Below are positions 1 to 62,429 of a stretch of DNA of 64,000 nt, piece by piece. This DNA comes from Azolla caroliniana. Taxonomy: Eukaryota > Plantae > Polypodiophyta. Positions within the stretch are counted from its first letter, which is position 1, and the number at the start of each line of letters is the position of its first letter. The stretch covers positions 18,972,001-19,036,000 of the forward strand of contig JBHGNT010000015.1 of the NCBI GenBank assembly GCA_043228905.1. The letters run 5' to 3'. Made by a program: the position numbers and the translations under genes. Below the pieces are notes generated by a model. That model was not told the origin of the DNA. It saw only the letters and a program-made list of their open reading frames with translations, and did no database searches.

Positions 1-489
1 CTCATTACATTATACATATGTCCCTATCTGCAAATATGCACACTAAGCCTGAAAACAAACCCTGGAAAACCTTGTTAATATTATGATAATGTGTGTTTTG
101 ACCTTAGAATAAGAAGTTCCAATAACATAAGGAATCTTCTCTTTGTATTTTTATTTATTTACAAATGCTAGATTGTGCCTTAGATGGTTGATGTGCTCTC
201 CAGGGATTTGTGAATTCCCTATTAAGGTTATATTTGTTTTTACCTTTTCATTTCTTGATTGCGCTTTAGATGGTGTCTGTTCTCGTTGTTAGAGATCTCC
301 CATTAACATTGTCTGATTTATGCATATTGTCTTCGTTTGGTTTTAAAATTAAACATTATTGCTAGCATATCTTTCTCTATTGTATGATGAGTTAAAAATA
401 ATTGTAGCATTGTCAAGTGTCTCCTTGAATCCTAACATCACTAGGGCATCTCATCCCATGCCAATGATGAATATAAACACGTTTTGGAA

Positions 490-1160
490 CTTTCAAAGAC
501 AAAAATTACAATATATTTGACTTGAGAATCTTACATGTATCAATGACGAGATACTTTAGTCATGTCTTACACTATTTCTATTTACTTAGTTATATTTATT
601 TTGGTTTGTTGTTCTGAGGTAATCTCTTGTTTAGTCTTATGGGTCATTTTGGCCTCTTAAAATTCAGTGTATCTCTCTCTCCCTTGGTGGAAACACACAA
701 TTATATTAATAAATGTGTGAAAAACACTATAATTATACCACAACTGAGTGGTATCAACCGCAATATGGATATTGGGACATGCTAAATTGCCAATAGGCAG
801 GACACATACTCCATCAAGGAAAGAATTTTGATTTTCTCCAATAAACACAATTGCCACATCAATTCTACCTTCAACTTTGCTCTAATTCCATGCCCATCAT
901 CAAATACAAATGCATTGGATGTATCCATATTTTGAAGACAAAAGCTATAATATATCTAACTTGTGAATCTTACATTTGCCGAAAACCATATTGTTTAGTC
1001 TCTTTTTATCTTATTTACTTTTATATTTAGTTAGTAATATTTATTTTATTTTGATTTCTTGTTCTCAAAGACAAGACAACACTTAAGATGTAATCTCTTG
1101 TTTGGTCTTATAGGCTATTTTGACCTCTTAAAAGACATTAATATATCTTTCTTTCTTTCT
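490..1160. repeat. Dispersed AT-rich repeat family (probable non-autonomous TE); related copies at ~7890-8007 (inverted) and ~54110-54320
   Basis: GACTTGAGAATCTTACATGTAT...TTTAGTCATGTCTTA is shared by ~520-570 and ~54130-54185, with a variant at ~940-1140. 690-810 matches the reverse complement of 7890-8007. Confidence 0.6.
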
Positions 1161-2450
1161 TCTCTCTCTCTCATTCATTGGTAAAGTTCTTAAACATCGA
1201 GAGTCGCTACTCACTTTCACACGTATCAGGTGAAATGTAATATTTTTGGTCTCATGGGTCATATTTGACCTCCGAAGACAATAATATAATCTACCTATCT
1301 ATCTATCTATCTCATCTCTCATTGGCATAGAAATGCCTTGTTGCTTCCAATAAAGATTCCCCTCTGAGTCTCATTTCAAGAATAGTGAATGTTTCATCTG
1401 TACATGTGTTTGGGTGTTAACCTATGGATGTTGGCTCATCAAAGTTGGACACCATTTGGGTTGTCAACATCATGTGGATCTTATTGATCATTTGCCATTA
1501 CGTCAAAGAAAGATGAAGATGTACTTGATTGGAGAAGTTCTCTGATCAGAGCTTTGTCTTCATGGGTTGTGTGGAAAATGTCGTTGATGATGTTTGGGTA
1601 AAGTAGTGTGCCCACACCCTCTAGAATAAATCCTTATTGCTTTGAAGACAAAATGTTCTCAAATGTTGTGGTGGTTGGAGAGGAAATTTTCAATATTCAA
1701 TATATGTAGTCCAATTCCATCACTAATCTATCCAGAAAGAGAAAGATCCAAATGCAATTCCGTGTATGTTTCAAACTTCCCTGCAATCAGTTGACTGGGA
1801 TTGTTTTGGATTCACTAGGCATCCTTGTAATCAGGTGTCCATTCCATTGTATCGATACTCTTAAATATTCCAAAAGTTTCCATCACAGTAGGATCTGCAT
1901 TATATTCTGAGCTTGGATTTTGGTGTCTTCCGCATTTAGTTTGGATGTGTGACATGCTCATTGGGTAATTCGCTATGTTGCAATTTTTTAGCGTAATCTG
2001 AAGCTTATGACTGGGAAATGGGGACACCTAGAACAATCCTGGCATAGAGTGGTTCGACAAATACACTTGAGCCTAGATGGATGTACCTTGCTTGTTAAGG
2101 TGCTCAGCAGAAACTAGCAGGTCATACATTCAACCCCTACATTCCACGGTGATCTAGAAAATTAGTGTTGTCAGTGAGGTTTGAACCCAAGTGTATATGG
2201 ACATGGCTTATCACTAGAGTATAGGCCTAATACAAAGAAAAAGAAAAGAAATAAGCTGCATTTCCCTTGTAATGATCAGGGAGGTGGATCATTGTCAACT
2301 GAATCTTCAAGGAAGATTTTAATCAAAATGACTGTGCATATTGATTTCACTTATGCAACTAGTTTGCCATTGAGCATAAAGTTTGCTTAGAATAGTTATT
2401 GAAAACAGGACATTGTTAGTATTTATCAATAAAAAATGGAATATTTGCAG

Positions 2451-4376
2451 TGATTACAGGTGAAGTGGCTAATTTTGCAGCGTATGCATATGCTCCTGCC
2501 ATTTTGGTAACCCCTCTTGGTGCTGTTAGCATTATAGTAAGGTAAGAGCATATAGTATGCAACTACTTTTCTTTACATGTTTTGTTGAAAGAATGCATAT
2601 GCATTTGCCAAAATCAGTAAGCATATGCGATAAATGTATAACATAATATAGTAAAGTAAAAGCATATAATATGTAAAAAACGTAGTGCATGTGTTTCGAT
2701 GAAAGAATCATGAAGTGTATGCTGTAAATATTTTCATAGTAATGTAAACATGACTTTATTTTACTTGAAGTAAGAACCAATAAGCAGAAAATGGACATAT
2801 ATGTGGGCATTATCTTGGTAAAGACTGTTTCAACCCACTTGTTTAAGAGAAACTTCATAAACAACCTCATGGGATGTTTTCTACAGTGCTGTTTTAGCGC
2901 ACATAGTTCTCAAAGAGAATCTTCATGCCCTTGGAGTTTTGGGTTGCATGTTAAGCATGGTCGGGTCTGTAACAATGGTGCTACATGCCCCAAGGGATCA
3001 GAATATTGAGTCTGTGGAAGAGATTTGGGAGCTTGCAACGCAATCAGGTAGGCTTTTGTATATATTTTTTGAGATAAGTTTGTGTATATATACCTATTTA
3101 TAGTATAATTGTATTTTTCTATGATATCTGGGAATGCACTCTTAGTTATACATTTTCTGTGCAGCTTTTGTAATATATATGATATTGGCCACTGCCATGA
3201 TATTTGTCTTGATCATATTCTTGATACCTGTGTATGGTCGGACTCATGTGATCGTGTGTATCAGTATATGCTCACTTGCGGGATCGCTAACAGTATGTAA
3301 ACAATAATTATATAGATAGATAGATAGATAGATAAAAAAAATCTAACATCTGATATCCATGCTACTCATGAACAGGTAATGAGTGTAAAAGCTCTTGGTA
3401 TTGCCATTAAGCTGAGTATTCAAGGGGATAATCAATTTTTGCATCCACATATATGGGCTTTTGTAGCTGTGGTGATTGTATGTGGCTTAACGCAGCTGAA
3501 TTACTTAAACATGGTGGGGGCTAAATTTTGGATTTATTTATGTGTTTATTTTACTGGAAGATTATCTTCTTGGTTCTGAGGAGTTAACTTGCAGTAATAT
3601 CCCAGGCATTGGATGCATTTGATACAACAGTGGTTTCTCTGATATACTATGTGATGTTTACATCATGCACAATTTTGGCAAGTGTCATCATGTTCAAGGT
3701 GAGAATTTATCTACCAGTAAGAACATAATATTAAGGAAAGCTCCAGCCTCCAAGATATCTTTTATTCTCACAAATGCCCTTCTCTCAGGTTTTCATTAGT
3801 TTTCCCAAATGTCCTGGTTCTGGAACAAGAAAAAAACGAGGTGGATTTAACCGGGGGGTTGCTGTAATTAGTAAATATAATTGAAACATAGGTGAGAGGG
3901 AGTTGTTTGAAACTACCCCATAGGCATTTTGGAAAATAATGAAAATTTAGGTTCATTTGAGGGATTTAAGGAAAAACTCAGAAGTTTTTTTTGGAGAGTC
4001 TCCCTATAATGTTAAAAATGTATAGTTAATTCTGTTGCAACAGAGATAAACCTCTTGAGAGAGTAATTTAAAAATATATAATTATGTGAGTGATACAGAG
4101 TTGGCAAGGCCAGCCTACTTCAAGTATAATCTCAGAAATGTGTGGATTCTTGATCATCTTGTTTGGCATGACATTACTAATAGTGTCAAAGGATATTGGG
4201 AATCCTGATTTCTTCCGAATAAGTGAGTATCTTTATATTCTCTATAGTTAAAATTCAGATTTCAAACATCACTTTTGACCTGCATCACTTTTTTAACAGC
4301 TGCATATTATCCATTCTCTCCTATTTCAAAACGCCTTCTTGCAGATCAAAATGATTCCAAACAATTCAACAAATGA
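2451..4376 (+). CDS. NIPA: NIPA-family probable magnesium transporter, 3' portion. Exons approx 2451-2541, 2887-3047, 3165-3292, 3376-3513, 3606-3698, 4099-4222, 4300-4376; 5' exons not identified
   Basis: GT-AG spliced exons join in frame to give [30 protein letters not shown] / [20 protein letters not shown]...VLHAP / [10 protein letters not shown] / [13 protein letters not shown]...QLNYLN / [31 protein letters not shown], the hallmark plant NIPA motifs. Stop TGA at 4374-4376. Confidence 0.93.
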
Positions 4377-9056: not shown

Positions 9057-9554
9057 TTATTTTGGAGCATCATCAAAGTTGAGGGCATAACTAATGGGAT
9101 CATAGAGCAAATTAAGACGAGGAGGGCGTTCACACGCAACCGCCCCGACACACACGGCAGGCGAAAAACACGAGGTTGGAGCGCGCGTCCGAATCCGGCG
9201 AATAAGGGCCTGACACTTGGCGGACTCACATTGGCCGTCGTGGCGCCATTTCCCCAGCCTAGCCATATTGTTACCAAGTTTGTATGATTTCTTAGTATAA
9301 TGAGAATGGTGATGATGAGAATTAGGGCTAAGGTTTAAATAAATCCGGTCATTTGTGTTATATTCATTGACTGTATGTGTGGAATTGGGAATGAGGATTT
9401 GGTAACGATGGTGATGGTGATGATGGGCAAAGTCAAGGTCATGGTCATGGTGGAGCTTCATATAAAGCATCAATGCTCTGATTTGTGCATCCATGGATCT
9501 CTGCATATCCTTCCTCAACTCTGTCCACCATCTCTTGATTGATCTAACCCTCAT
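9057..9554 (-). CDS. Small His-rich plant protein with C-terminal YDPxSYALNFDD motif (uncharacterised plant family)
   Basis: 165-aa intronless ORF with a GC-rich 3' half, ending LLYDPISYALNFDDAPK, a motif conserved in small uncharacterised plant proteins. A (CT)n tract lies in the putative 5' UTR (9590-9678). Confidence 0.72.
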   Translation of the reverse strand: MRVRSIKRWWTELRKDMQRSMDAQIRALMLYMKLHHDHDLDFAHHHHHHRYQILIPNSTHTVNEYNTNDRIYLNLSPNSHHHHSHYTKKSYKLGNNMARLGKWRHDGQCESAKCQALIRRIRTRAPTSCFSPAVCVGAVACERPPRLNLLYDPISYALNFDDAPK

Positions 9555-15940: not shown

Positions 15941-17080
15941 ATGGTCTCCATCCACCCCATGGCTCAAGCTTCTCAAATTTGTTGTTTCGCAACATTAGGC
16001 AAGTTATATCCTCCTCCTCCTCCTCTCTCCCTCTCTATGTGTGCTCCATTGCTTGTTTTGTTTTGCTTTGTTTCGTGACAAGTTTGCTAGTCCGGAGTAT
16101 CACAATGTTCTACCACACATTACTTGCTTGTGAGGCCAAAGCCTTGTGTGTACCATGTGTTCTACCTATGTATGGAGAAATTGCTTGTGAGTGATTGGTT
16201 TAGCGGTTTAGGGTTTGTCATGTGTTCTATCTACTAGATATTGATTGTTGCGTGTACCACACATTCTATCTTTGGAAGTTTGGGTCGTGAGTATCACATT
16301 CTACCACAATTCATGTGCATGTTTTCTCTAGGCCTTGAGTATCATTGTGTCTCTTGCATTGTTCCACATTGCATATAACCAATTCATTCATTTTCGGTTC
16401 CGTAGATCACCCACAATTGCATGGGTAGAGGGTGTTAGCCATAACAAAACACCTATCCTTAGGATGATATACTAAATCAATAGAATGAGAGTTCCGAGTT
16501 TCATACACTCTAACAACCAACTCTAATGCTCTAAAGTCACATAAATATATGTATCTCCGTGATTGATTAATTTTGATTGTTTTTTTTGCCATTGATGTGA
16601 AACAATGCAGCCACATTGGTAATATGGGCCGCGACCACCGTGTCCGAGGCAACGAAGCTAGTGGTCGTGAACGAGGGCCAGATAGAGATATGTGCCAAGT
16701 ATTGGGTCCCGGGGCCTAAAGCCGCGGGCGGGGGGTGCCGTGAACTCCGTCCGGGACAAGCTTGGGAATTGGTGTCGTCGTCCCCATGGGAGGGTGCAAC
16801 AATGTGGGCAGTACGTGGGACGTGCAACGGGGAGGCATGCCACACGGGCCCGCCCAGCGGGGTCACCCAATTCCAGTTCACATTGTCCGGCTTCGAGGCA
16901 AGGGATTACTATGATTTGTCCGTAGCGGCCGGATATAACGCGGGAATTGCGGTCCGCCCGACCAACCAAGCTTGTCCGGCCCTCTCGTGCATGTCACTTG
17001 CACATGGTGCATGCCAGGCGGGCTCCACGAAGACTTGCCCATATGGCTCAACTGATTATCGAGTCACCTTCAAGGCTTAA
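15941..17080 (+). CDS. Secreted small thaumatin-like protein (PR-5 family), join(15941..15998,16611..17080)
   Basis: Exon 2 has TLP motifs (GGGC..L.PGQ.W, TQFQFTL, DYYDLSV..GYN, TC....DYRVTF). Exon 1 plus the start of exon 2 give a signal-peptide-like MAQASQICCFATLATLVIWAATTVSEA. The phase-1 join uses donor AG|GCAAGT and acceptor TGCAG. Confidence 0.85.
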
Positions 17081-24617: not shown

Positions 24618-25006
24618 AATCTTTCCTAGGCCTATCCATGACATATGTTTTCCAAAAGGACAAAAAGAAAAGTCTCATCTAATGCCTTTTTTTAAGGTCT
24701 AGGAGACAAAATCCATGCAACACATTGGTAGGCCAACCCTATGCATTGTACATATGGCCATCATGAAGACCAAGTATTAGTTAGTGAACTTACATATATT
24801 ATAATAGAAATTATAGGGGGGAGAGAGAGTGTGTGTGTGGAATGGGCAATTTTAGAAGGAGAGCCAAGTCAAGCACACGTGTTAGAAAGGAGGAGAAGTG
24901 AGAGAGAACTTTATATCTTAGTCCCAAGAAAATGACTTAATTTCATGTGATGTACCAAGGAGAAGGAGATAAGGAGAGACACAAAGGTTTCCAAGGAATT
25001 ATAGGA

Positions 25007-25200
25007 GAAGAAGGATAACACAACAAAGAAAGGAGAAGGAGGTCACAAATCTAGCCCTAGAAGAAGAAGAAGAAGAAGAAGAAGAAGAAGAAGGATAACA
25101 CAACAAAGAAAGGAGAAGGAGGTCACAAATCTAGCCCTAGAAGAAGAAGAAGAAGAAGAAGAAGAAGAAGGAGAAAGAGGTCACAAATCTAAACCTAGAA
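25007..25200 (+). repeat. ~80-bp tandem repeat with (GAA)n in the RALF 5' leader
   Basis: GGATAACACAACAAAGAAAGGAGAAGGAGGTCACAAATCTAGCCCTAG(AAG)n at 25013 and 25093, with a partial third copy at ~25170-25200. Confidence 0.85.
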
Positions 25201-25206
25201 GCTTAG

Positions 25207-25506
25207 ATGGCAAGGGTGGTTATGGTAGTACAGGTGATGATGGCATTGATAGTGGTGCTAGGTATGGTGGATTTGGGGGCTGCAGTTGGAGGAAGTAAGG
25301 CCGAGGTTAATGGCAGCGGAATGATGGCGAAGAGGCGGGTCCTCGCGGACGACACCACTACCTACATAAGCTACGATGCTCTTACGGCCGACAGTGTGCC
25401 TTGCGACACTAGCGGGGCTTCCTACTATGATTGCACCACGGACACCGCGAATGCCTACACAACCTCCTGCACCACAATCACGACTTGCGACCACCTCACC
25501 ACCTGA
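25207..25506 (+). CDS. RALF: RALF (rapid alkalinization factor) precursor with an unusually acidic mature peptide
   Basis: Hydrophobic signal peptide, RRVL subtilase (S1P-type) site, YISY motif, VPC...GASYY.C, AN.Y...C..I..C (4 Cys). Single exon, 99 aa. Confidence 0.95.
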   Translation: MARVVMVVQVMMALIVVLGMVDLGAAVGGSKAEVNGSGMMAKRRVLADDTTTYISYDALTADSVPCDTSGASYYDCTTDTANAYTTSCTTITTCDHLTT

Positions 25507-27024
25507 TTGAATCCAATGTTTTGGATTTGGAATTGGAGGAGGATCCTGGTTTGGTGTTGGCCCTTTTTCTTATGTTTTAAAAGAACTAATCAATCCATGA
25601 TGGTATTGATGGTTTTTGGGGGAAGGGGCGGAAAAAATCAGGATTCTGATGTACAAATATATATATATCAATAATGATGATCATCAAATGATTGTGTGTT
25701 TTGATGCTTTATTTTGTGCTACTATTGCAAGCTATATGTTTTTCTTACTTATAAATAATAAAAAATTTCATCCTCAAATCATGAACCAAACCATCCTTTT
25801 GCAATAAAAAGTATCCCCCCTTTCTCTCATCTGATCTGTGTGTAATATGCTTATAAATCCTTGAAACACTTTGATTCACATATATAAGAGTTTTTTTTCT
25901 TCTGTTTGTTTTTCTTCATTTACCAAATTTAAAAGGATCCTAATATATATGTAAGGTTTGTTTTAAAAGGACCCTAATACATATGTAAGGTGGAAGACCC
26001 CACAAAGCACATGATTTGAAATGGATAGTCCTAGTGGTTATGGTGAAGCTACACCACGCGGTCCGATGGGGCAATTCAATTCACCAACCGAACTTGTTTA
26101 TGCCTCTTTAAAAGAACGAAGAGAATCACATTTGTGTAGTGTATAGAGTTCTTATCGAACACATTCGATCCTCTTGCCATGGGGGTTGGAGCTTGGGATC
26201 GGTAAAAAAAAAACGGAGAGAGCATGGGATTGATACTTGGCCATGGGCTTGTCCTTGTCCCAATAATAGACTCTATTTTGAGTCCCTCATTGGCATGAAT
26301 CTATCCCTATGTGGTTTTACGATTCGTGAAGTATCTCGGAAGTCATAAAAATTTGAGAGAATGGGAGAGCTCAAATCCCCACCATGGGCTTGGTTGTGTC
26401 CCATGTACCCTTTTTTTTATCTCGTCATAAAATCAAGAGAATACCTCGCTATGGGCTTGGGTGTGTCCCAACAGAAGTTTTATTGTCTCATTGGACAGGA
26501 CATGGATCATATAGGTAATCTCTCTCAAGGTCTTTCTACTTGGAATTAGGTATGCATCCTAGTTATAAAAGGCCAAAAAAGGAAATAAGAGTATTCTTCC
26601 TTTTTTTTTCAAACTATAGATATATGCTTTGTGGAGAAGTTGAGGCTTCGAATCAACTAACAATTAATGAAGGTTCATTGCATGATTAAGAAAAATAATG
26701 AGCAAAAGATTGTGTATTTAGAGCTTTGTATGTAAAAGTAAAAGTAGGAATCTATGGTTCCCTTAAGTTTGTGTATTTAGAGCTTCATATGTAAAAGCAA
26801 AAGTAGGAATCTAAGCTCTCCTTAAAAACATACATTTAGCAAAACTCATTTCCTAATTTTCGTGGATTTATCTTCATATCTAGTAATTTTGATGGCACGA
26901 GTACCTTTGAAACCACCATAGCCTATGACCTATTTCTTCTTCTTAGGGTTGTTTCTTTCTTGATTCCTAATACAAATTGGCTAGATGCCACTGTGGAATG
27001 TAGGGATTGAACCCATGACCTCCT

Positions 27025-38732: not shown

Positions 38733-41851
<3,119 letters not shown>

Positions 41852-44766: not shown

Positions 44767-47097
44767 CTATATGGAATCCTCAGAATATGAAGAAGGGAGT
44801 GTTTTACGCATCAAGTGCCGACGACGTTGAAGTGTCAGGAGAGTGAGAATATTATCAGTCTCGATAATCTTATAACCATATTTCTTGTACATGTTGAGTG
44901 GTACTTTATCGATTATTCGACAATGAAGGTACATCTCTCTACAACCCATCTGAACTGCAAGCTCTTCGGCAGCCTGTAAAAGCTCCCTTCCAATGCCTCT
45001 CCTGATTAGGTCGACAATCCACACACTATGAGATCACAACACATAGAAACACATGGGACAACAAAATACAACCTTATTACATACATGTGTGTACTAATCA
45101 CACCTTAATAAAGACATCTAGACCAAATGGAAGGAAATGAGCAAATGGGGCTATCTCTAGCCATAATGACTCCATGAAATGCTAGCTACCCTATCAGACC
45201 AGTTAATCCTATTCTAAACCTATTGTCATGCCCATGATATCCAGCCTAGACTGGTAAACTAGATGGCCATCCACAAGTTAGTCTCTTGCCAAAATAGCTC
45301 AGGGTAGCTAACACTGTGTACCAGCTAACCCTAGGTGTGTGTCCAGATACATCCAAAGGGGGTGTCCACCAAATGGTTTTAAATGAGCTAATGAGCTCAT
45401 CTCTATCCTAAATGGTTGAGTGATTTAAGATACAGATAACATACACAACCAACAATATTCTGAGGAATGCTACATAGACACAACAAAGAATCAACCTAAC
45501 ACTGTGTACAAGCTAACCTTAGGTGTATGTCCAGATACATCCAAAGAGTGACCACCAAATGGTTTTAAATGAGCTAATGAGTTCATCTCTATCCTAAATG
45601 GTTGAGTGATTTAGGATAGAGATAACACACACACAACCAACAATATTCTGAGGAATGCTACATAGACACAACAAAGTATCAAGTCTGAGATGAAGGGAAA
45701 CAACGAAAGAAAAACCTTCTAAATTTCTTGCTCACAGCCATGTTACTGAGAAAAGGAGCATCGACAGGTGGGTGAGGAGTTTGCATATCCTTGGGCTTCC
45801 CCAATGCATTGAAAGAGAGCTCAACGGCGCCAACCAATAACCATCTCTGAGATTGAGACTCAATGTTATCACCATCACCAACATTATTAGCTTTACTACT
45901 GCAATCATTATTATTATTATTGGTTGAGAGTTGTTTGGATGGGGCATAAAGGGCAACCAGAGTGACTGCATGAGGGAGGCATGCCTGCCGCTCTCTCAAA
46001 TATGTGGCGAGGATCCAAGCGAGGGCAGGCCGGTAAGTCAAAGGGCCCCACATAAGCTCCGAGTAGGAATCCGTCAAGAGATCCTCCACATCACCGAGTT
46101 GCTCCAATCGCAATGCTCGAATGATGACACACCCCCCGCTTCCTTTGTCTTGTTCTTTCGATATTTCCCGGATAACCTTCCATTTCATGATCAATTTTAC
46201 CTTCTCTTGTTCGATCGGATTTAGTGATTGAACCGACATCGGCATAGGATCAAGACTTAACTGAGATTTGTCGAAAGGAAACCTTCTGATTTCGCTATTA
46301 ACTAACCCTACAACATCAAAGTAACCATCATCGACTTGTTTTTCCAGATTATGCCTGCAATTAACCTGGTATTATGATTATCCATTTCCTTCATTTATAT
46401 TTCAGCATTGTTTAACCCTACATTATCATCTCAATTCATTACCCTGGTTCAGATTTTGCCTTTACTTTACCATTATGTATCTTAGTTATCGGTTTCCCTG
46501 GTAATTAGCTCTAAACCATCATTCTTGACAGTTTCGGTCTGGATTTTGCATTTAATTTATTGTCCCCTTCCTTTCAGATTTCTTCATTACTTAACTCAAA
46601 GATATAATCACTGATAAACTCCCTAGTTCGGCATGTTTCCTCTGTGATCAACCCTAACCTATTCATTTGAGCTTAACCTAGATGTTTGCAATAGATTTTC
46701 TTTCCGATTTCCCACAGTTTATTCCGGTAGTAGTAGTAGTAGTAGTAGTACCTGGATTAGAAACGACTTCTGAATCGTCATCTTCTTCTTTTGGTTGTGC
46801 TTGTTGTTGTTGTTGTTCCTTTTCTTCTTGGTCATGGCTTAGGGATGAGGCGTGGGCAGAGGCGGATGGGAACTGAGAGCATGGGGCGGAAGTTACAGCG
46901 AAACATGCATCATAACGATACATTGGAATCCGATGAAAAAGCATGGAAATGGGGAAGAAGGATCCATGGCTGCTGCTTGGGGGGGAAGCATTGGAATGAG
47001 CTGCGGCGCGACAACGAAGATGCTGATGCTGATGCTGATGATGATGATGATGCAGATTATGCAGGTGAAGAGGAGGAGGAGGAAGGCAAGTTCCCAT
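44767..47097 (-). CDS. GNAT5: GCN5-related N-acetyltransferase, chloroplast GNAT5-like. Exons ~46752-47097, ~45716-46290 (acceptor uncertain), 44767-45001
   Basis: YLRERQACLPHAVTLVALY, GAVELSF...PHPP..APFLSNMAV.KKFRR|RGIGRELLQAAEEL...MYLHCRIIDKVPLNMYKKYGY...LLTLQRRRHLMRK closely resembles Arabidopsis At1g24040 (from memory). The His/Ser-rich N-terminus resembles a transit peptide. Confidence 0.85.
45310..45676. repeat. Tandem duplication, ~187-bp unit, within the GNAT intron
   Basis: TAACACTGTGTAC.AGCTAACC...GCTACATAGACACAACAAAG occurs twice with high identity. Confidence 0.88.
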
Positions 47098-51067: not shown

Positions 51068-53110
51068 TCAACAAGATTTGGAGATTCCATACATTGCTGG
51101 AAAGAGGAGTGGCGGTGATATCTTTTTTCCATCATCAGCATGCATTGTGTGCTCAAATGCATGTTTCCCTAGCTCTAAATTTCCACAGCTTTTGCAAGCA
51201 CCTAGTAAGGTATGCCACAATGCAAGATCAGCATGGCAGCTTGTCTTCTCAACCAATGTTACAGCCACAGCTAGTTCACCAGTACGGCCAAGGAGATCAA
51301 CAACACACGTATGATGCTCGATAACAGGGGCAATTCCATATTCTTTGCTCATGGCCTCAAAATAAGTATGGCTCTTTGACACTAGGCCAGTTTGACTGCA
51401 TGCATGGAGAACCACCACAAATGTAATTAAGTTTGGCTTAACCCCTTCCCCTAGCATTTTGTCAAAGACACGGAAGACGGTCTCATATTCCCCAATTTGC
51501 ACATACCCCGTCATTAGGGAAGTCCATGAAACTACATTTCTAACTGGAAGCTTATCAAATACTTGTTCAGCTTTTGTGAGAGAGCCACACTTGGCATACA
51601 TATCAATTAAGGTACTGGCAACAAGATTTCCTCCTAGCAATCCTCTCCTTTCGATTTCAGCATGAATTTCTTCACCCTTGACTGTAGCTCCAATGATACT
51701 GCAAGCTTTTAAGCTGCAGATAAACGTGACAACATTTGGAGAAATCCCACATAATTGCATGTCCTCAAAACACTTTAGTCCTTCCTCACCATGTCCATGT
51801 TCAGTATACCCATCGATAAGTGCAGTCCATGTGACTACGTCTTGAACTTGCAGCTCATCAAAGACTTCCTGAGCTTTAGTAAGCAAACCACATTTTGCAT
51901 ACATGCTTACCAATGCATTTCCAACATAAGTGTCTCTTTCTAAGCCCCCCCATCTTTTAATATCTTCATGCACTTCTTGACCCTTCTTCAAATCTTTAAT
52001 CTGACCACATGCTTTCAAGATGCATGCAAATGTGACACCATCGGGATAAATACCTTCAATTTGCATCTGTTCAAAACACACAAGCACTTCCTCATTCCTA
52101 CCATCGTCAGAATAACCCGAGATGAGAGCATTCCACGAGACTACATTTCGGATTGGAAGCTTATCGAAAATATTTTCTGCATTGATGAGTGAGCAACATT
52201 TGACATACATATCCACCACAGCACTACCGATGAAAAGGTTCCTGTCTAAGAGACCTTGCCTTTCGATTTCAGTATGTAATTCCAGGCCCTTCTCCATAGC
52301 TTGTATGGTTCCACAAGCTTTCAATGCACAAACAAATGTAACAGAATTAGGAAATATTCCCATCAATTGCATATGCTCAAACCTCTTTAGGGCTTCTTTG
52401 CCATGTCCATGTTCCGCATAACCTGAAATGAGGGCCGTCCAAGAGACCACATTCCTTACTCGTAACTCATCAAATACCTTTTGTGCTTTTGAAAGCGTTC
52501 CACACTTCGCATACATATCAACTAGAGTGCTCCCAATGAAAAGATCTCTATCGACCCCAAGGTCCCGGGCCTTCTCATGCATTTGGATCCCTCTTTCCAA
52601 GTTTTTCAGGCTCGCACATGCCTTCAATAATGCTACTAAAGTGTCAATATCAAGATGAACTAAGCCATCTTCTTGCATTTGCTCATAAACAGAAAATGCA
52701 TTATGTGGCTTCCCACATTTCAAATAACCAATAATAAGTGAATTCCATGACCTTGCATTTCGATATATCAATTTATCAAAAGATTCTTGGGCATAATTCA
52801 TACATCCCAACTCGACCAGAACTGAGACAAGTCGGTTTCCCACAGAAGAGTGAACATCCATTTCATGTCTTTGTAAGTATGAGTGCAAACGAAGAGCACA
52901 AGGTTGATCCTTTGCTTGTTTACATCTCTGGAGGAGGAGTTGAATATCCTCGACTGAAGGTGGACAAAGATCTTTTTCTTCTAAAGAAAGTATAGCGTCT
53001 TCTAAGTTATTAGTCCACCATCCACTCTTTTTATTGTTCTTCAATAAATCTAAACCGTTCTGTATGGAAGGCCTTACCTTTTGCCCTAAAACATCTGCAA
53101 CAGAGCTCCA
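51068..53110 (-). CDS. PLS-class pentatricopeptide repeat protein with partial E domain, no DYW; true start probably in an upstream exon
   Basis: P-L-S triplets (VVSWTALISGY, PNSVTFVCALKAC, GSTLVDMYAKCG) and E-type HHTCVVDLLGRTG...WHTLLGAC. The ORF opens at TTG, and TTGCAG at 53111-53116 looks like an acceptor. Confidence 0.92.
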   Translation of the reverse strand, partial: WSSVADVLGQKVRPSIQNGLDLLKNNKKSGWWTNNLEDAILSLEEKDLCPPSVEDIQLLLQRCKQAKDQPCALRLHSYLQRHEMDVHSSVGNRLVSVLVELGCMNYAQESFDKLIYRNARSWNSLIIGYLKCGKPHNAFSVYEQMQEDGLVHLDIDTLVALLKACASLKNLERGIQMHEKARDLGVDRDLFIGSTLVDMYAKCGTLSKAQKVFDELRVRNVVSWTALISGYAEHGHGKEALKRFEHMQLMGIFPNSVTFVCALKACGTIQAMEKGLELHTEIERQGLLDRNLFIGSAVVDMYVKCCSLINAENIFDKLPIRNVVSWNALISGYSDDGRNEEVLVCFEQMQIEGIYPDGVTFACILKACGQIKDLKKGQEVHEDIKRWGGLERDTYVGNALVSMYAKCGLLTKAQEVFDELQVQDVVTWTALIDGYTEHGHGEEGLKCFEDMQLCGISPNVVTFICSLKACSIIGATVKGEEIHAEIERRGLLGGNLVASTLIDMYAKCGSLTKAEQVFDKLPVRNVVSWTSLMTGYVQIGEYETVFRVFDKMLGEGVKPNLITFVVVLHACSQTGLVSKSHTYFEAMSKEYGIAPVIEHHTCVVDLLGRTGELAVAVTLVEKTSCHADLALWHTLLGACKSCGNLELGKHAFEHTMHADDGKKISPPLLFPAMYGISKSC

Positions 53111-58532: not shown

Positions 58533-61500
58533 TCAGGCAGCCTCCCGCCATCCACCTTTCTTTAACCGCAGTGCTTCAACCTTCATAGCATCTGTCCACA
58601 TATGGGCATCTGAATAAATATTGACCATTAAAATATATGCTCCCGCAACTTTATCATCTGAATTCAATGCAGAATCAAAGGAATGTTTCCCTAGCTCTAC
58701 ATCACCCCATTTTCGGCAAGCACTTAACATCGTACTCCATACCACAAAATCAGGTTCAAATGGCATTTTCTCTGCTGTCAGAACAGCTTCATCAAGTTGA
58801 CCTGCACGACCAAGTAGATCAACCATACAATTCTGATGCTTAAGAGTTGGACTAATTTTATATTCTTGAATCATCAGTATAAAGCAATCTCTTCCTATGT
58901 CAACGAGACCAGCATGATTACATGCCGTCAAAAGATTAAGGAAAGAAACTCCATCTGGCTGTATGTTTTCCATTCTCATCCTCGAAAATAAATTAAATAC
59001 ACACTCCCAATCACCTTGACGAGCATAGCCTGTACTTAATGTGTTCCATGAAGCAAGATCCCAAACAGGCAAAGTATCAAGGAGTTGTTGAGCATCCAGC
59101 ATGCTTCCACACCTTCCATACATATCAACAAGGGCATTTGTAAGAACGACTTCCGATGTTTCAGATATAATTCTGTTAATCATGGAATGGAACTTTTTCC
59201 CTGTTTCAAGGGCCACAGCATCACCACATGCTTTCAAAGTGCTGACAAAGATTCTGCTATCAGGTAATACACCCTGCTCTTGTAGTTGTCCATAGAGTTT
59301 GAGTGCCTTCTCACAGTCTACTTCAGCATATGATAGGATCATAGAATTCCACACAACAACATCTGGATACACACCATCTTGTTGCATCTCTTCAAAACAG
59401 ACATAGGCTTCCTCACAAAGGCCAAGGTCAGTATAGCCTGAGATCAGTGCAGTCCAAGAGATTATATCTCGTGAAGGTAATTGATCTAGCAAGCCATGCG
59501 CCTCCTCAAGAAAGCCACATTTACAATACATGTCCACCAGCGCACTACAAATGTAAGCATCTCTTTCATAACCTTTTTTAGCAATCTCTGAATGAAATGC
59601 TTGACCCTTGTGGATAATGCTGAGTTTACTACAAGCTCTTAATCCAGAAACATACGTAAAGGCATTTGGTGAGACGCTCTCCATACACATTCTCTGGAAA
59701 CAATTCAATGCTTCCTTGCTAGATCCATGCTCAGCGTAGCCAGCAATTAGAGCAGTCCAAGTGAGCACATCTCGAGCACCCATGGTATCAAATACTTCTT
59801 GTGCTTCTGCAAGTTCACCACACTTAGCGTATAGCACTACCAAACAACTCGCCACATGGAAATTCAATTCAAACCCATCCTTTACAACTTCTGCATGAAA
59901 TTTTTGTCCCCTTCTTAGGGTTCCAGGCTCACAACAAGATTTCAAGACAAAAATGTATGTTAATGCATCAGGAAACACCCCTTCTAGTTGCATGCTTTTA
60001 AAACAGTTCTCCACTTCTTCACTAAGCTTCCGTTCAGCATATCCAGCAATGACAGCATTCCAAGTCACAACATCGTGTATTGATAACCCCACAAATGTCT
60101 CCCATGATTCAGATAATAGGCCACATTTTGCATACATATCAACTAGAGTATTACCAACTACAATATTTACTTCCAGCCCTTGCTTCATGATTTCAATGTG
60201 TAATGATTGGCCCCTCTTCGCCACTCGTTCAGAGCTACAAGCCTTCAATGCACACACGAAAGTGATATAATTAGGAGACACTCCAGCTGATTTCATTTCT
60301 TCGAAACAATTCCATGCATCTTCACCAAATGCACGTTCACTATAAGCTGTAAGGACAGTGTTCCATGCAACTATATCTCGAATCTCTAGTTTATCAAATA
60401 TGTGGTATGCTTCTATGAGAGAATTGCATTTAACATACATGTCTATCAAAGTGTTTCCCACAATGCCTTCATTTTCAAATCCCTTTTTGACAAGCTCACA
60501 ATGAATATCCCTACTTTTACTGATTGTTTGCAAACTTCCACAAGCTTTTAAGCTGCAAGAAAGTGTAACAGCATTTGGAGACATTTTGCTTCTCATTCTC
60601 TCCAGGCACTTCAGAACTTCTTCACCATGTCCATACTCTGAATAGCCAGCAATGAGGGCATTCCAAGAAACTATATCTTGAAAAGCAAGCATATCGAAGG
60701 TATTCTGTGCTTCTGCAACTTGGCCACATTTAGCATAAAAGTCCACTAGTGTGTTTCCCACAAATGCATTTGTTTCATATCCTTTCTTCATAACTTCACT
60801 GTATATCCTTTGTCCATGAATTAAAGTTCCCAAACTGCTACATGCTTTCAAAACACATACATATGTGCCAGCATCAGGAGATATACCATCTGCTTGCATT
60901 CTCTCAAAGCATGTAAGAGCTTGTTCTGGAAGAGAATGGTCTACATATCCTGCAACCAATGCAGTCCATAACACTGTGTCTCTAACTGAAAGTGTATCAA
61001 AAATATCTCGTGCTTCTTCTAAAAATCCACCTTTTGCATACATATCCACCAAAATGCTACCAATAAACCGATCTGTTTCATATCCTTCCTTAACGATTTC
61101 ATAATGTATTTCCCGTCCTTTATGTATGATATTCGACCTTACACATGCTGTTAAGAGGGCAACAAATGTGAAACTATTCGGATACACAAATTCTTGTTTC
61201 ATTCTATTATAGAGATCAAAAGCGTGTTGAGTTTCTCCACAATCAATGTGAGCTTGGATGAGAGAAGTCCAGGAGTATTCATTTCGATATTGTAGATTTT
61301 CAAAGACACGCAAGGCACAAGTGATACTACCACAATCGACAAATGCAGGAACAAAGTAGTTTCCAAGAGATATATTTCTATTCGAATTAAGAGTGTCAGA
61401 TATCAAGGCAAACATACGGTCCAGACCTGGTAAATCCTTTTCTCTCTTGCATTTAAGCAAGATAAATATGAAGTCATCATTTGATGGGAATTTTGTGGTC

Positions 61501-62429
61501 TGCTCCAGATACGAGATCGCATCTCCAGTGCTTACTGTTCTCCAATCACAAGAATTCTTTTGGTTTCTCGCCAGATCAATTCCATTAAGATCATCAAGCA
61601 ACATAGCTTTCCCAGAAGAATCTGATCCTCCAGTCTCTGTAACTGAAACTGTTCTTTTTGTTAATCGCACATCACATGTAACCTTTGCGTTTTTCATCAA
61701 ATCACTCCTTTTAATATCATTAACCAGCACATGATTTCCTGAAAGATCAATTCTTTTCTTCTCTGAAGCTGAATTCCTGCACTTACCATTCTCCACTCAC
61801 AAAATCTTCACTTTTTTCTTCACATCGCTACCTGTACTCTCTGAAACTCTTTCTCTTACGCTTATTGTGTTGTCCTTCCAGTTGATACATGTAGGATCAT
61901 CAAGCAACACAGAATTTTCTCTATAATCACATCCTGTATTCTCTGGGACTCCATCCCGTGTGATTATTGTTCTCATATCACAAGAGATCTCCGTGTTCTT
62001 CTTTTCATTGCTATCTATATTCTCTGGAACTCCATCTCCAGTGCTTAACCTCTTCAAATCACACGCAATTATCATGCTTTTCTTCAAATCAATACTTCTA
62101 AGCTCATCAAGAGACACAGAATCTCCTGAAAGACCATATGTTCTACTCTCACAAAAATCGATCTTTACAGCTTCGATTTCTATGGCTTCAGATGTATGGC
62201 TCTGAAAAGCATAAAAGCACGGGAAAATCTTGATGCCAAAAGGAGGTCGAAAACCTGCAGAAACTGAGAAGTTCGTAGGGTTAAAGAACAACATCCAGAA
62301 CGTCTGCGTGAAGGTAACAGGAAAACTACAGAGATATGATTCTGTCAGACTCCCTAGCCATTCCAATCTACAAAACATAGCGACGTCTGAATCTCTAGAA
62401 TCTACATTCATTCTTTTGGAAAAGAACAT
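58533..62429 (-). CDS. Large PLS-E class PPR protein. The N-terminal ORF (61797-62429) and PPR ORF (58533-61796) are in the same frame, separated by one TGA
   Basis: Long array of PLS triplets, E domain (HQNCMVDLLGRAG...WSTMLSACRKWG...AGAYILMVNIY), no DYW. The junction reads KVKIL*VENG. Confidence 0.9.

Follow-up and report, generated by a model that had tools for sequence, protein, structure and literature searches.

The 64,000-nucleotide stretch of Azolla caroliniana DNA analysed here (the window) carries a single-exon gene for a peptide that, judged from its sequence, is an intact member of the RALF family whose normally basic sites are neutralised, mostly to Thr. Purifying selection on the mature region is supported, and the peptide (hereafter Azolla RALF) forms the extreme end of a low-charge fern RALF lineage that has apparently not been described previously. 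The gene and its flanks are laid out as follows, in window positions.

25207..25506, + strand: RALF precursor ORF, single exon, 99 aa plus stop; the frame is unbroken, Pfam PF05498 matches at aa 39-95, and the aligned contigs have no joints
25207..25284, + strand: probable signal peptide, about aa 1-26, with an inferred boundary (windows that begin at aa 1-16 have a hydropathy of 1.9-2.9)
25285..25332, + strand: short pro-segment without the usual acidic stretch or Cys-x(3-7)-[EQD]-Cys motif
25333..25344, + strand: RRVL (aa 43-46), a cleavage site of the S1P type predicted from the sequence
25345..25503, + strand: predicted mature peptide, 53 aa, with 0 Lys/Arg, 8 Asp and 16 Thr
25363..25374, + strand: YISY (Y53-Y56), which binds LLG in Arabidopsis, with the conserved Leu59 after it
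25402..25434, + strand: Cys66-Cys76 loop including GASYY (aa 70-74), whose YY contacts LRX in Arabidopsis
25453..25491, + strand: altered PYxRGC (AYTTSC; Arg to Thr86), Cys88-Cys94 loop and Asp95
25507..25820, + strand: probable 3' UTR, a weak hint from the contig ends of runs X1, X3, X4 and X5
24874..24900, + strand: upstream block of 27 bp, identical in the relative L002 and containing CACGTG
25006..25170, + strand: tandem duplication of an 80-bp unit (2.1 copies, 100% matches) that contains runs of GAA and lies shortly before the ATG

The precursor scored 68.6 bits (E 1e-18) against the Pfam RALF model (PF05498), for which the cut-off is 22, and it matched the Arabidopsis RALF4 chain in the PDB with E 2.3e-8. 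Residues C66, C76, C88 and C94 align to columns that are invariant in 120/120 canonical rows, and RRxL, YISY with its conserved Leu and GASYY are present as in canonical RALFs. An earlier note on this DNA had listed these motifs together with the ORF position and the counts of Lys/Arg, Asp and Thr; translation and composition agree with it throughout, and the N-terminus that it called a signal peptide is hydrophobic (hydropathy only). The ESM Atlas, searched with Azolla RALF, returned RALF clusters and nothing new, AlphaFold2 models of seven RALF sequences were uninformative (mean pLDDT 58, pTM 0.32), and a second RALF-like motif set was absent from a six-frame scan of the 64-kb window.

We compared the peptide with 120 canonical rows of net charge at least +3, in which ten columns count as basic (at least 35% Lys or Arg) and 24 as scaffold (at least 75% conserved). 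Azolla RALF keeps 21 of the 24 scaffold residues (canonical mean 22.4; the exceptions are N75D, P83A and G87S) and none of the ten basic ones (canonical mean 6.2), a contrast that is partly circular because net charge defined the canonical set, and whose statistics are overstated because basic columns vary more than scaffold columns in any case. The ten normally basic columns read T,T,A,T,S,T,T,T,D,H, that is, six Thr and one each of Ala, Ser, Asp and His. Asp95 is the sole acid among them, and D57 and D62 sit at columns that are acidic in 38% and 43% of canonical RALFs as well. Because one basic column in ten is acidic and six are Thr, the sites appear to be neutralised rather than swapped. 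The earlier description of the peptide as charge-reversed is accurate for its net charge, which is -7.0 at pH 5.5 (-8.2 at pH 7); a position-by-position reversal is rejected on the same count.

The intact scaffold claimed in that note holds for the 21 conserved residues but not for two motifs: PYxRGC reads AYTTSC (P83A, R86T, G87S), and the C-terminal RCRR reads TCDH. The Arg replaced by Thr86 is present in 119/120 canonical rows, and the lost Pro (P83) in 109/120. The mature peptide is not net-positive and has no basic pectin-binding patch, so that the predicted product lacks three defining features of canonical RALFs, namely basic charge, PYxRGC and RCRR. By eye, T60, T68 and T78 line up with the three Arg through which RALF22 binds pectin, and the basic pectin-binding surface would thus be lost, as had been proposed. 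The pro-segment has changed as well. The 25 aa before RRxL hold two Asp/Glu where 160 cationic RALF precursors have a median of 6, and the Cys-x(3-7)-[EQD]-Cys motif is found in 106 of 160 cationic RALFs and is absent here. A usable site was present in 197/235 sequences, among which pro-segment acidity tracks mature charge with rho 0.34; these sequences are not independent of one another.

Several special roles for the Thr and Asp residues were considered and rejected. Mucin-type Thr O-glycosylation was set aside as a non-plant pathway (we know of no such pathway in plants). Plants O-glycosylate mainly Hyp and Ser-Hyp motifs, and because the mature peptide has one Pro, the O-glycosylated variant put forward in the earlier note is unlikely. 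The motif for Tyr sulfation is Asp-Tyr, and none was seen by eye. Insect antifreeze-like Thr arrays are regularly spaced, and no regular Thr spacing was seen by eye.

The mature peptide has a single His besides its 16 Thr and 8 Asp. To place this composition, we pooled 264 RALF proteins from similarity searches (150/285 and 120/224 among the matches listed, plus 20, plus 2/6 candidates), of which 260 had a parsable core and 235 were distinct. The sample was pulled with acidic queries, so its low-charge shares are upper bounds: among the matches listed, 10/235 distinct cores are net-negative, 4/235 have at most one Lys or Arg (Azolla RALF, P0003, P0053 and P0164) and 2/235 have none (Azolla RALF and P0053). 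Azolla RALF has the most negative core of these 235. In an earlier set of 160 cores, the median net charge of the others was +5, and the Thr share of Azolla RALF (0.27) was the highest, with a median of 0.06.

A metagenome scan with 195 pattern matches, 4 of them confirmed, supplied DNA for the relatives P0003 (L001, L002) and P0053 (L003, L004). L001 is 76% identical to Azolla RALF. Their mature regions differ at 20 of 41.7 synonymous and 9 of 117.3 non-synonymous sites (dN/dS 0.11, Fisher p 9e-8), and codon positions 1, 2 and 3 differ at 3, 4 and 22 of 53. The six Thr at basic columns are also Thr in L001, and four of the six use a different codon. Over the pre-pro region, dN/dS is 0.74, near neutral. 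Compared with L004, dN/dS is 0.27 and the synonymous excess is significant. How small dN/dS really is remains uncertain because GC3 is 0.72 in Azolla RALF and 0.47 in L001 and because the mature non-synonymous deficit has p 0.056 when the pre-pro synonymous rate serves as the yardstick; synonymous divergence is unequal between the mature and pre-pro parts (p 0.025). In a bias-matched test, C had changed to T at 10/31 third-position and 2/25 second-position C (p 0.028). These data support purifying selection on the mature region, of uncertain strength, and with the GC3 caveat they bear out the earlier view of the peptide as selected rather than decayed.

Upstream of the ATG, L002 aligns to the Azolla sequence with gaps (87% of aligned columns) and matches 27/27 bases at 24874-24900. 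The CACGTG in this block is the core of a G-box. The block corresponds to the first 27 bases of L002 (L002:1-27) and may extend beyond the L002 start; these 27 bases are identical despite mature regions that differ at 48% of synonymous sites. P0003 may be an orthologue or a paralogue, because the upstream region of L002 aligns to the Azolla sequence and the 3' flank of L001 fails to.

The second relative, P0053 (L003:1448-1681, L004:134-367), is a Lys/Arg-free, Ser/Thr-rich RALF-like gene without a pro-segment or RRxL, with SISY for YISY and YA for YY, and still with dN/dS 0.27 against Azolla RALF. L002 and L003 come from one assembly, and P0053 and P0003 may therefore be paralogues within a single plant. 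Clade IV-type RALF-like peptides are reported to have lost the cleavage site and changed YISY (PMC9933782). Both losses are seen in P0053; Azolla RALF retains the site and the motif.

Phylogenetic analysis of 52 cores, 32 of them selected and the other 20 sampled randomly among those with net charge at least +3 (51 columns, few for so large a number of rows; LG+G4, midpoint root), arranged the fern sequences in a charge ladder. It runs from KP509_27G044800 (+2) through P0005 and two Adiantum nelumboides proteins (0 to -2) and KP509_27G044900 (-3) to an innermost trio of Azolla RALF (-6), P0003 (-5) and P0053 (-3), with supports of 96/81, 98/89, 97/81 and 100/98. The composition of Azolla RALF was flagged as atypical in this first tree. 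When the ten basic columns were dropped, KP509_27G044800 was no longer attached to the low-charge group, and the supports were 91/90 for the seven-row group, 96/86 for the six-row group, 88/78 for the acidic four and 98/92 for the inner three. The cationic RALFs from Ceratopteris, Pteridium and Adiantum cluster on their own (100/95), and Ceratopteris and Adiantum each carry a cationic RALF (+6 to +7) together with members of the low-charge group.

The nearest named relatives, all in the same tree group and all annotated as 'hypothetical protein', are KP509_27G044900 (KAH7295401.1) and KP509_27G044800 of Ceratopteris richardii and L7F22_048271 of Adiantum nelumboides, with charges of -5.8, +1.0 and -2.8 at pH 5.5. 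The acidic relatives that the earlier note proposed to look for thus exist in two fern genera. Like Azolla RALF, the three proteins carry LTAD or LSAN and T-rich replacements, and KP509_27G044900 also has AYTTSC; unlike it, they retain one or two Arg. YISY and Leu59 are kept in Azolla RALF, P0003, P0164, P0005 and P0006, and P0003 and P0164 also keep 21/24 scaffold residues each, including both receptor-contact motifs. KP509_27G044900 (P0164/P0265) and KP509_27G044800 (P0167) have consecutive locus tags and are likely a tandem pair that represents two steps of the ladder.

Low charge is not specific to ferns: it is found in Juncus and oat RALFs, and tomato SlRALF10 is described as acidic. The Juncus and oat sequences were placed outside the fern group, which suggests separate origins. 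The low- or negative-charge RALFs of Poales were P0166 (Juncus effusus), P0073 (Avena sativa) and P0161 (Puccinellia); P0166 and P0073 have 24/24 scaffold residues, and P0073 has a long acidic N-terminal extension. Another low-charge group (P0039, P0080 and P0174) has a core charge of +2 and two Arg, and P0080 and P0174 have no RRxL.

RALFs were defined as basic in a 2026 review (PMC13516882), and a 2025 review raised a charge-dependent division of labour among them as an open possibility (PMC12527185). The main text of a family-wide Arabidopsis RALF study nowhere uses 'charge', 'acidic' or 'isoelectric' (PMC8491022). Our literature search, which covered mostly freely available papers without their supplements, found no paper on acidic fern RALFs, and its sole match for an acidic, anionic, neutral or negatively charged RALF is a passage in the accessible text of PMC12676208 that is apparently a slip with the charges swapped. 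Further acidic examples might be listed among the pI values of genome-wide RALF surveys; SlRALF2, for instance, is said to have an acidic pI, with precursor or mature peptide unspecified in the accessible text (bioRxiv 10.64898/2026.06.05.730363). On the points on which the earlier note had staked its reading (acidic orthologues, dN/dS, expression and literature), nothing that we found overturns it.

Arabidopsis RALF4 (PDB 6qwn, 6qxp, 6tme), RALF22, RALF1 and RALF23 share with Azolla RALF the RRxL site, YISY (YIGY in RALF4), the Leu, the YY loop and four Cys in register; RRXL is described as the RALF cleavage site (bioRxiv 10.64898/2026.06.05.730363). They differ in charge, with a reported pI of 10.53 for RALF22 and eight Lys/Arg in RALF1, and Azolla RALF differs from them in its altered PYxRGC and RCRR and its non-acidic pro-segment. 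In structural work, RALF4 binds LRX through its Cys loops and YY and leaves its basic patch solvent-exposed; YISY is required for LLG and dispensable for LRX, and the two binding modes are mutually exclusive (PMC7132299). RALF22 without three Arg bound de-methylesterified pectin 3.7-fold worse and barely compacted it (bioRxiv 10.1101/2023.08.23.554416), and RALF1 without Lys and Arg neither bound oligogalacturonides nor signalled (PMC11449480). Those two constructs, RALF22 R82A,R90A,R100A and RALF1-KR, resemble Azolla RALF in that the basic residues are gone and the scaffold is kept. They are laboratory-made, and RALF1-KR is inactive and only slightly negative; Azolla RALF is natural, has a charge of about -7 and appears to be under selection.

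The closest natural precedent is SlRALF10 of the RALF27 group, which is acid-rich like Azolla RALF; with six acidic residues, it is reported to co-precipitate with LRX and to cause no alkalinisation (bioRxiv 10.64898/2026.06.05.730363). It keeps several basic residues, has YLSY and has lost one Tyr of YY, whereas Azolla RALF keeps these motifs and has no Lys or Arg. The SlRALF10 sequence was not among the tree rows. Physcomitrium PpRALF3 is similar by description: it is a RALF from a non-seed plant, its RGC motif is substituted and its knock-out has a phenotype (PMC9933782).

In current models, pectin binding, wall compaction with LRX and perception by FER all depend centrally on positive charge (PMC11449480; bioRxiv 10.1101/2023.08.23.554416). 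A selected natural RALF that keeps the two protein-binding motifs but not a single basic residue would uncouple the pectin interface from those for LRX and LLG, and a near-equivalent beside a cationic paralogue in Ceratopteris would make pectin-free action, or antagonism at shared sites, testable in a model fern. We lean tentatively towards the reading that Azolla RALF is a pectin-blind RALF that would occupy LRX and LLG sites and compete there with a cationic RALF. The peptide would be secreted and cleaved at RRVL. Its Cys loops and YY would dock in the LRX pocket as those of RALF4 do, exposing a Thr/Asp surface instead of a basic patch. The free peptide and its LRX complex would neither bind nor compact de-methylesterified pectin, and the peptide would not be held in the wall. 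In the weakest step, it would be a poor CrRLK1L activator, like RALF1 without Lys and Arg, and would in that way damp the wall stiffening and growth arrest brought about by a cationic paralogue.

Competition of this kind is consistent with a largely retained scaffold beside ten lost basic residues, with selection on the mature region, with a low-charge group that is maintained without the basic columns, and with the coexistence of cationic and low-charge members in Ceratopteris and Adiantum. The mechanism is carried over wholly from angiosperms, by our inference. LRX has been reported in moss and Selaginella (PMC6482432), and ferns are described as having no strict FER orthologue (PMC12807370). 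Binding to LLG may be weak, because Arg around YISY of RALF23 make polar contacts with LLG2 (bioRxiv 10.64898/2026.06.05.730363), and loss of the near-invariant Arg and Pro of PYxRGC could impair docking to LRX. Antagonism is not among the assays described for RALF1-KR or SlRALF10 in the accessible text of the two sources (PMC11449480; bioRxiv 10.64898/2026.06.05.730363).

The strict retention of YISY would fit an agonist equally well. We regard it as possible, though unlikely, that Azolla RALF is an agonist that acts independently of pectin, as a mobile ligand of some CrRLK1L-LLG pair in ferns, perhaps one with a neutral or basic binding face. YISY and Leu59 have been kept in Azolla RALF, P0003, P0164, P0005 and P0006 even though YISY is dispensable for LRX, and the RRxL site is kept too. 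Fern genomes are reported to hold five to ten CrRLK1Ls (PMC13516882), and pectin has been proposed to constrain RALF diffusion (PMC12676208). RALF1-KR, however, is inactive in Arabidopsis (PMC11449480), the LRX-contact YY is kept as well, and one acidic column in ten does not make a mirror-image charge pattern. The charge-swapped receptor suggested in the earlier note is weakened by this count and by a second copy type that drops two Asp (D57S, D75G).

A role outside the receptor and LRX system, as an abundant secreted Thr/Asp-rich peptide of the wall, in ion binding or in defence, seems improbable to us. The top-ranking Thr share would suit it, as would the deep contig coverage of the gene in X3, X8 and X10, which is a poor measure of expression, and the dN/dS of 0.27 for P0053, which lacks RRxL and is short of one Tyr in YY and of the first in YISY. 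The receptor-contact motifs held within 21/24 scaffolds by Azolla RALF, P0003 and P0164 speak against it, and so do the two Asp missing from the second copy and the lack, by eye, of regular Thr spacing or an Asp cluster.

We also give little credence to the view that this is an ordinary RALF whose charge is a tolerated variable, in a plant whose walls and receptors are indifferent to it. Net-negative or neutral cores with complete scaffolds appear to have arisen separately in Juncus and oat, and the RALF-pectin link has, according to the abstract of PMC13516882, been demonstrated in angiosperms only. Yet the same ferns keep a separate RALF of +6 to +7, the Thr at the basic columns persist while their codons drift synonymously, and the acidity of the pro-segment has been lost along with the positive charge. 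A drifting or dead copy is largely refuted and most improbable: the near-neutral pre-pro region, coverage that is only transcript-like (no run is recorded as RNA) and the non-significant dN/dS among the closest copies would allow it, but the frame is open in every relative seen, the synonymous excess is significant against both L001 and L004, the indels listed in the contigs spare the frame, and relatives occur in two named fern genera.

The competition that we prefer could be one part of a wider arrangement, which we offer as a rather unlikely speculation. Ferns would run a two-sign RALF system, in which a cationic RALF compacts pectin through LRX and an old anionic lineage makes a pectin-repelling LRX complex and blocks LLG. 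The ratio of cationic to anionic peptide would set wall stiffness and signalling, with a milder, convergent version in Poales. Azolla RALF would then be a natural 'anti-RALF'.

The stretch is present in 11/20 public runs listed, none recorded as RNA; we examined contigs of 8 of the 11. The main contigs of X1, X3, X4 and X5, from four studies, end at 25785, 25820, 25789 and 25783, near AATAAT at 25754 and AATAAA at 25803, and contigs of these four runs give no cover past 25886. Depth in X8 is 120-4000 over the gene and its 3' flank to 25885 and 0-6.5 beyond; X6 and X7 cover part of the gene only. The gene is probably expressed, but this transcript-like pattern is a hint only, because no poly(A) end was seen.

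A second copy type occurs in X3, X4, X8 and X10. Its mature region carries D79E, T80S and T90V in X3 (9/10 differences listed) and additionally D57S and D75G in X8 (11/13 differences listed), and none of the mature changes listed is to Lys or Arg. Among the closest copies, dN/dS is 0.26-0.40 and not significant (p 0.06-0.19). The list of indels for X8 and X10, which leaves out 28 rows, has 11 downstream of the stop codon and a single one, of 3 bases, within the ORF. In record 11 of X4, the pre-pro region (25207-25344) has 6 non-synonymous and 0 synonymous differences, a pattern opposite to that in the mature part (Fisher p 0.044).

The neighbouring genes in the window have no apparent link to RALF. 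Two PPR proteins are encoded by single ORFs at 51068-52861 (-; 597 aa) and 58533-61697 (-; 1054 aa, with an E motif), and the protein collection searched held no exact match to either. Protein-like ORFs without a Pfam match at 45679-46245 (-; 188 aa) and 9057-9554 (-; 165 aa) are probably exons of unrecognised genes. A piece of a thaumatin-family ORF lies at 16802-17080 (+; Pfam E 8e-9), and a kinase exon and an EF-hand exon at 38899-41851 (-) likely belong to one calcium-dependent protein kinase gene.
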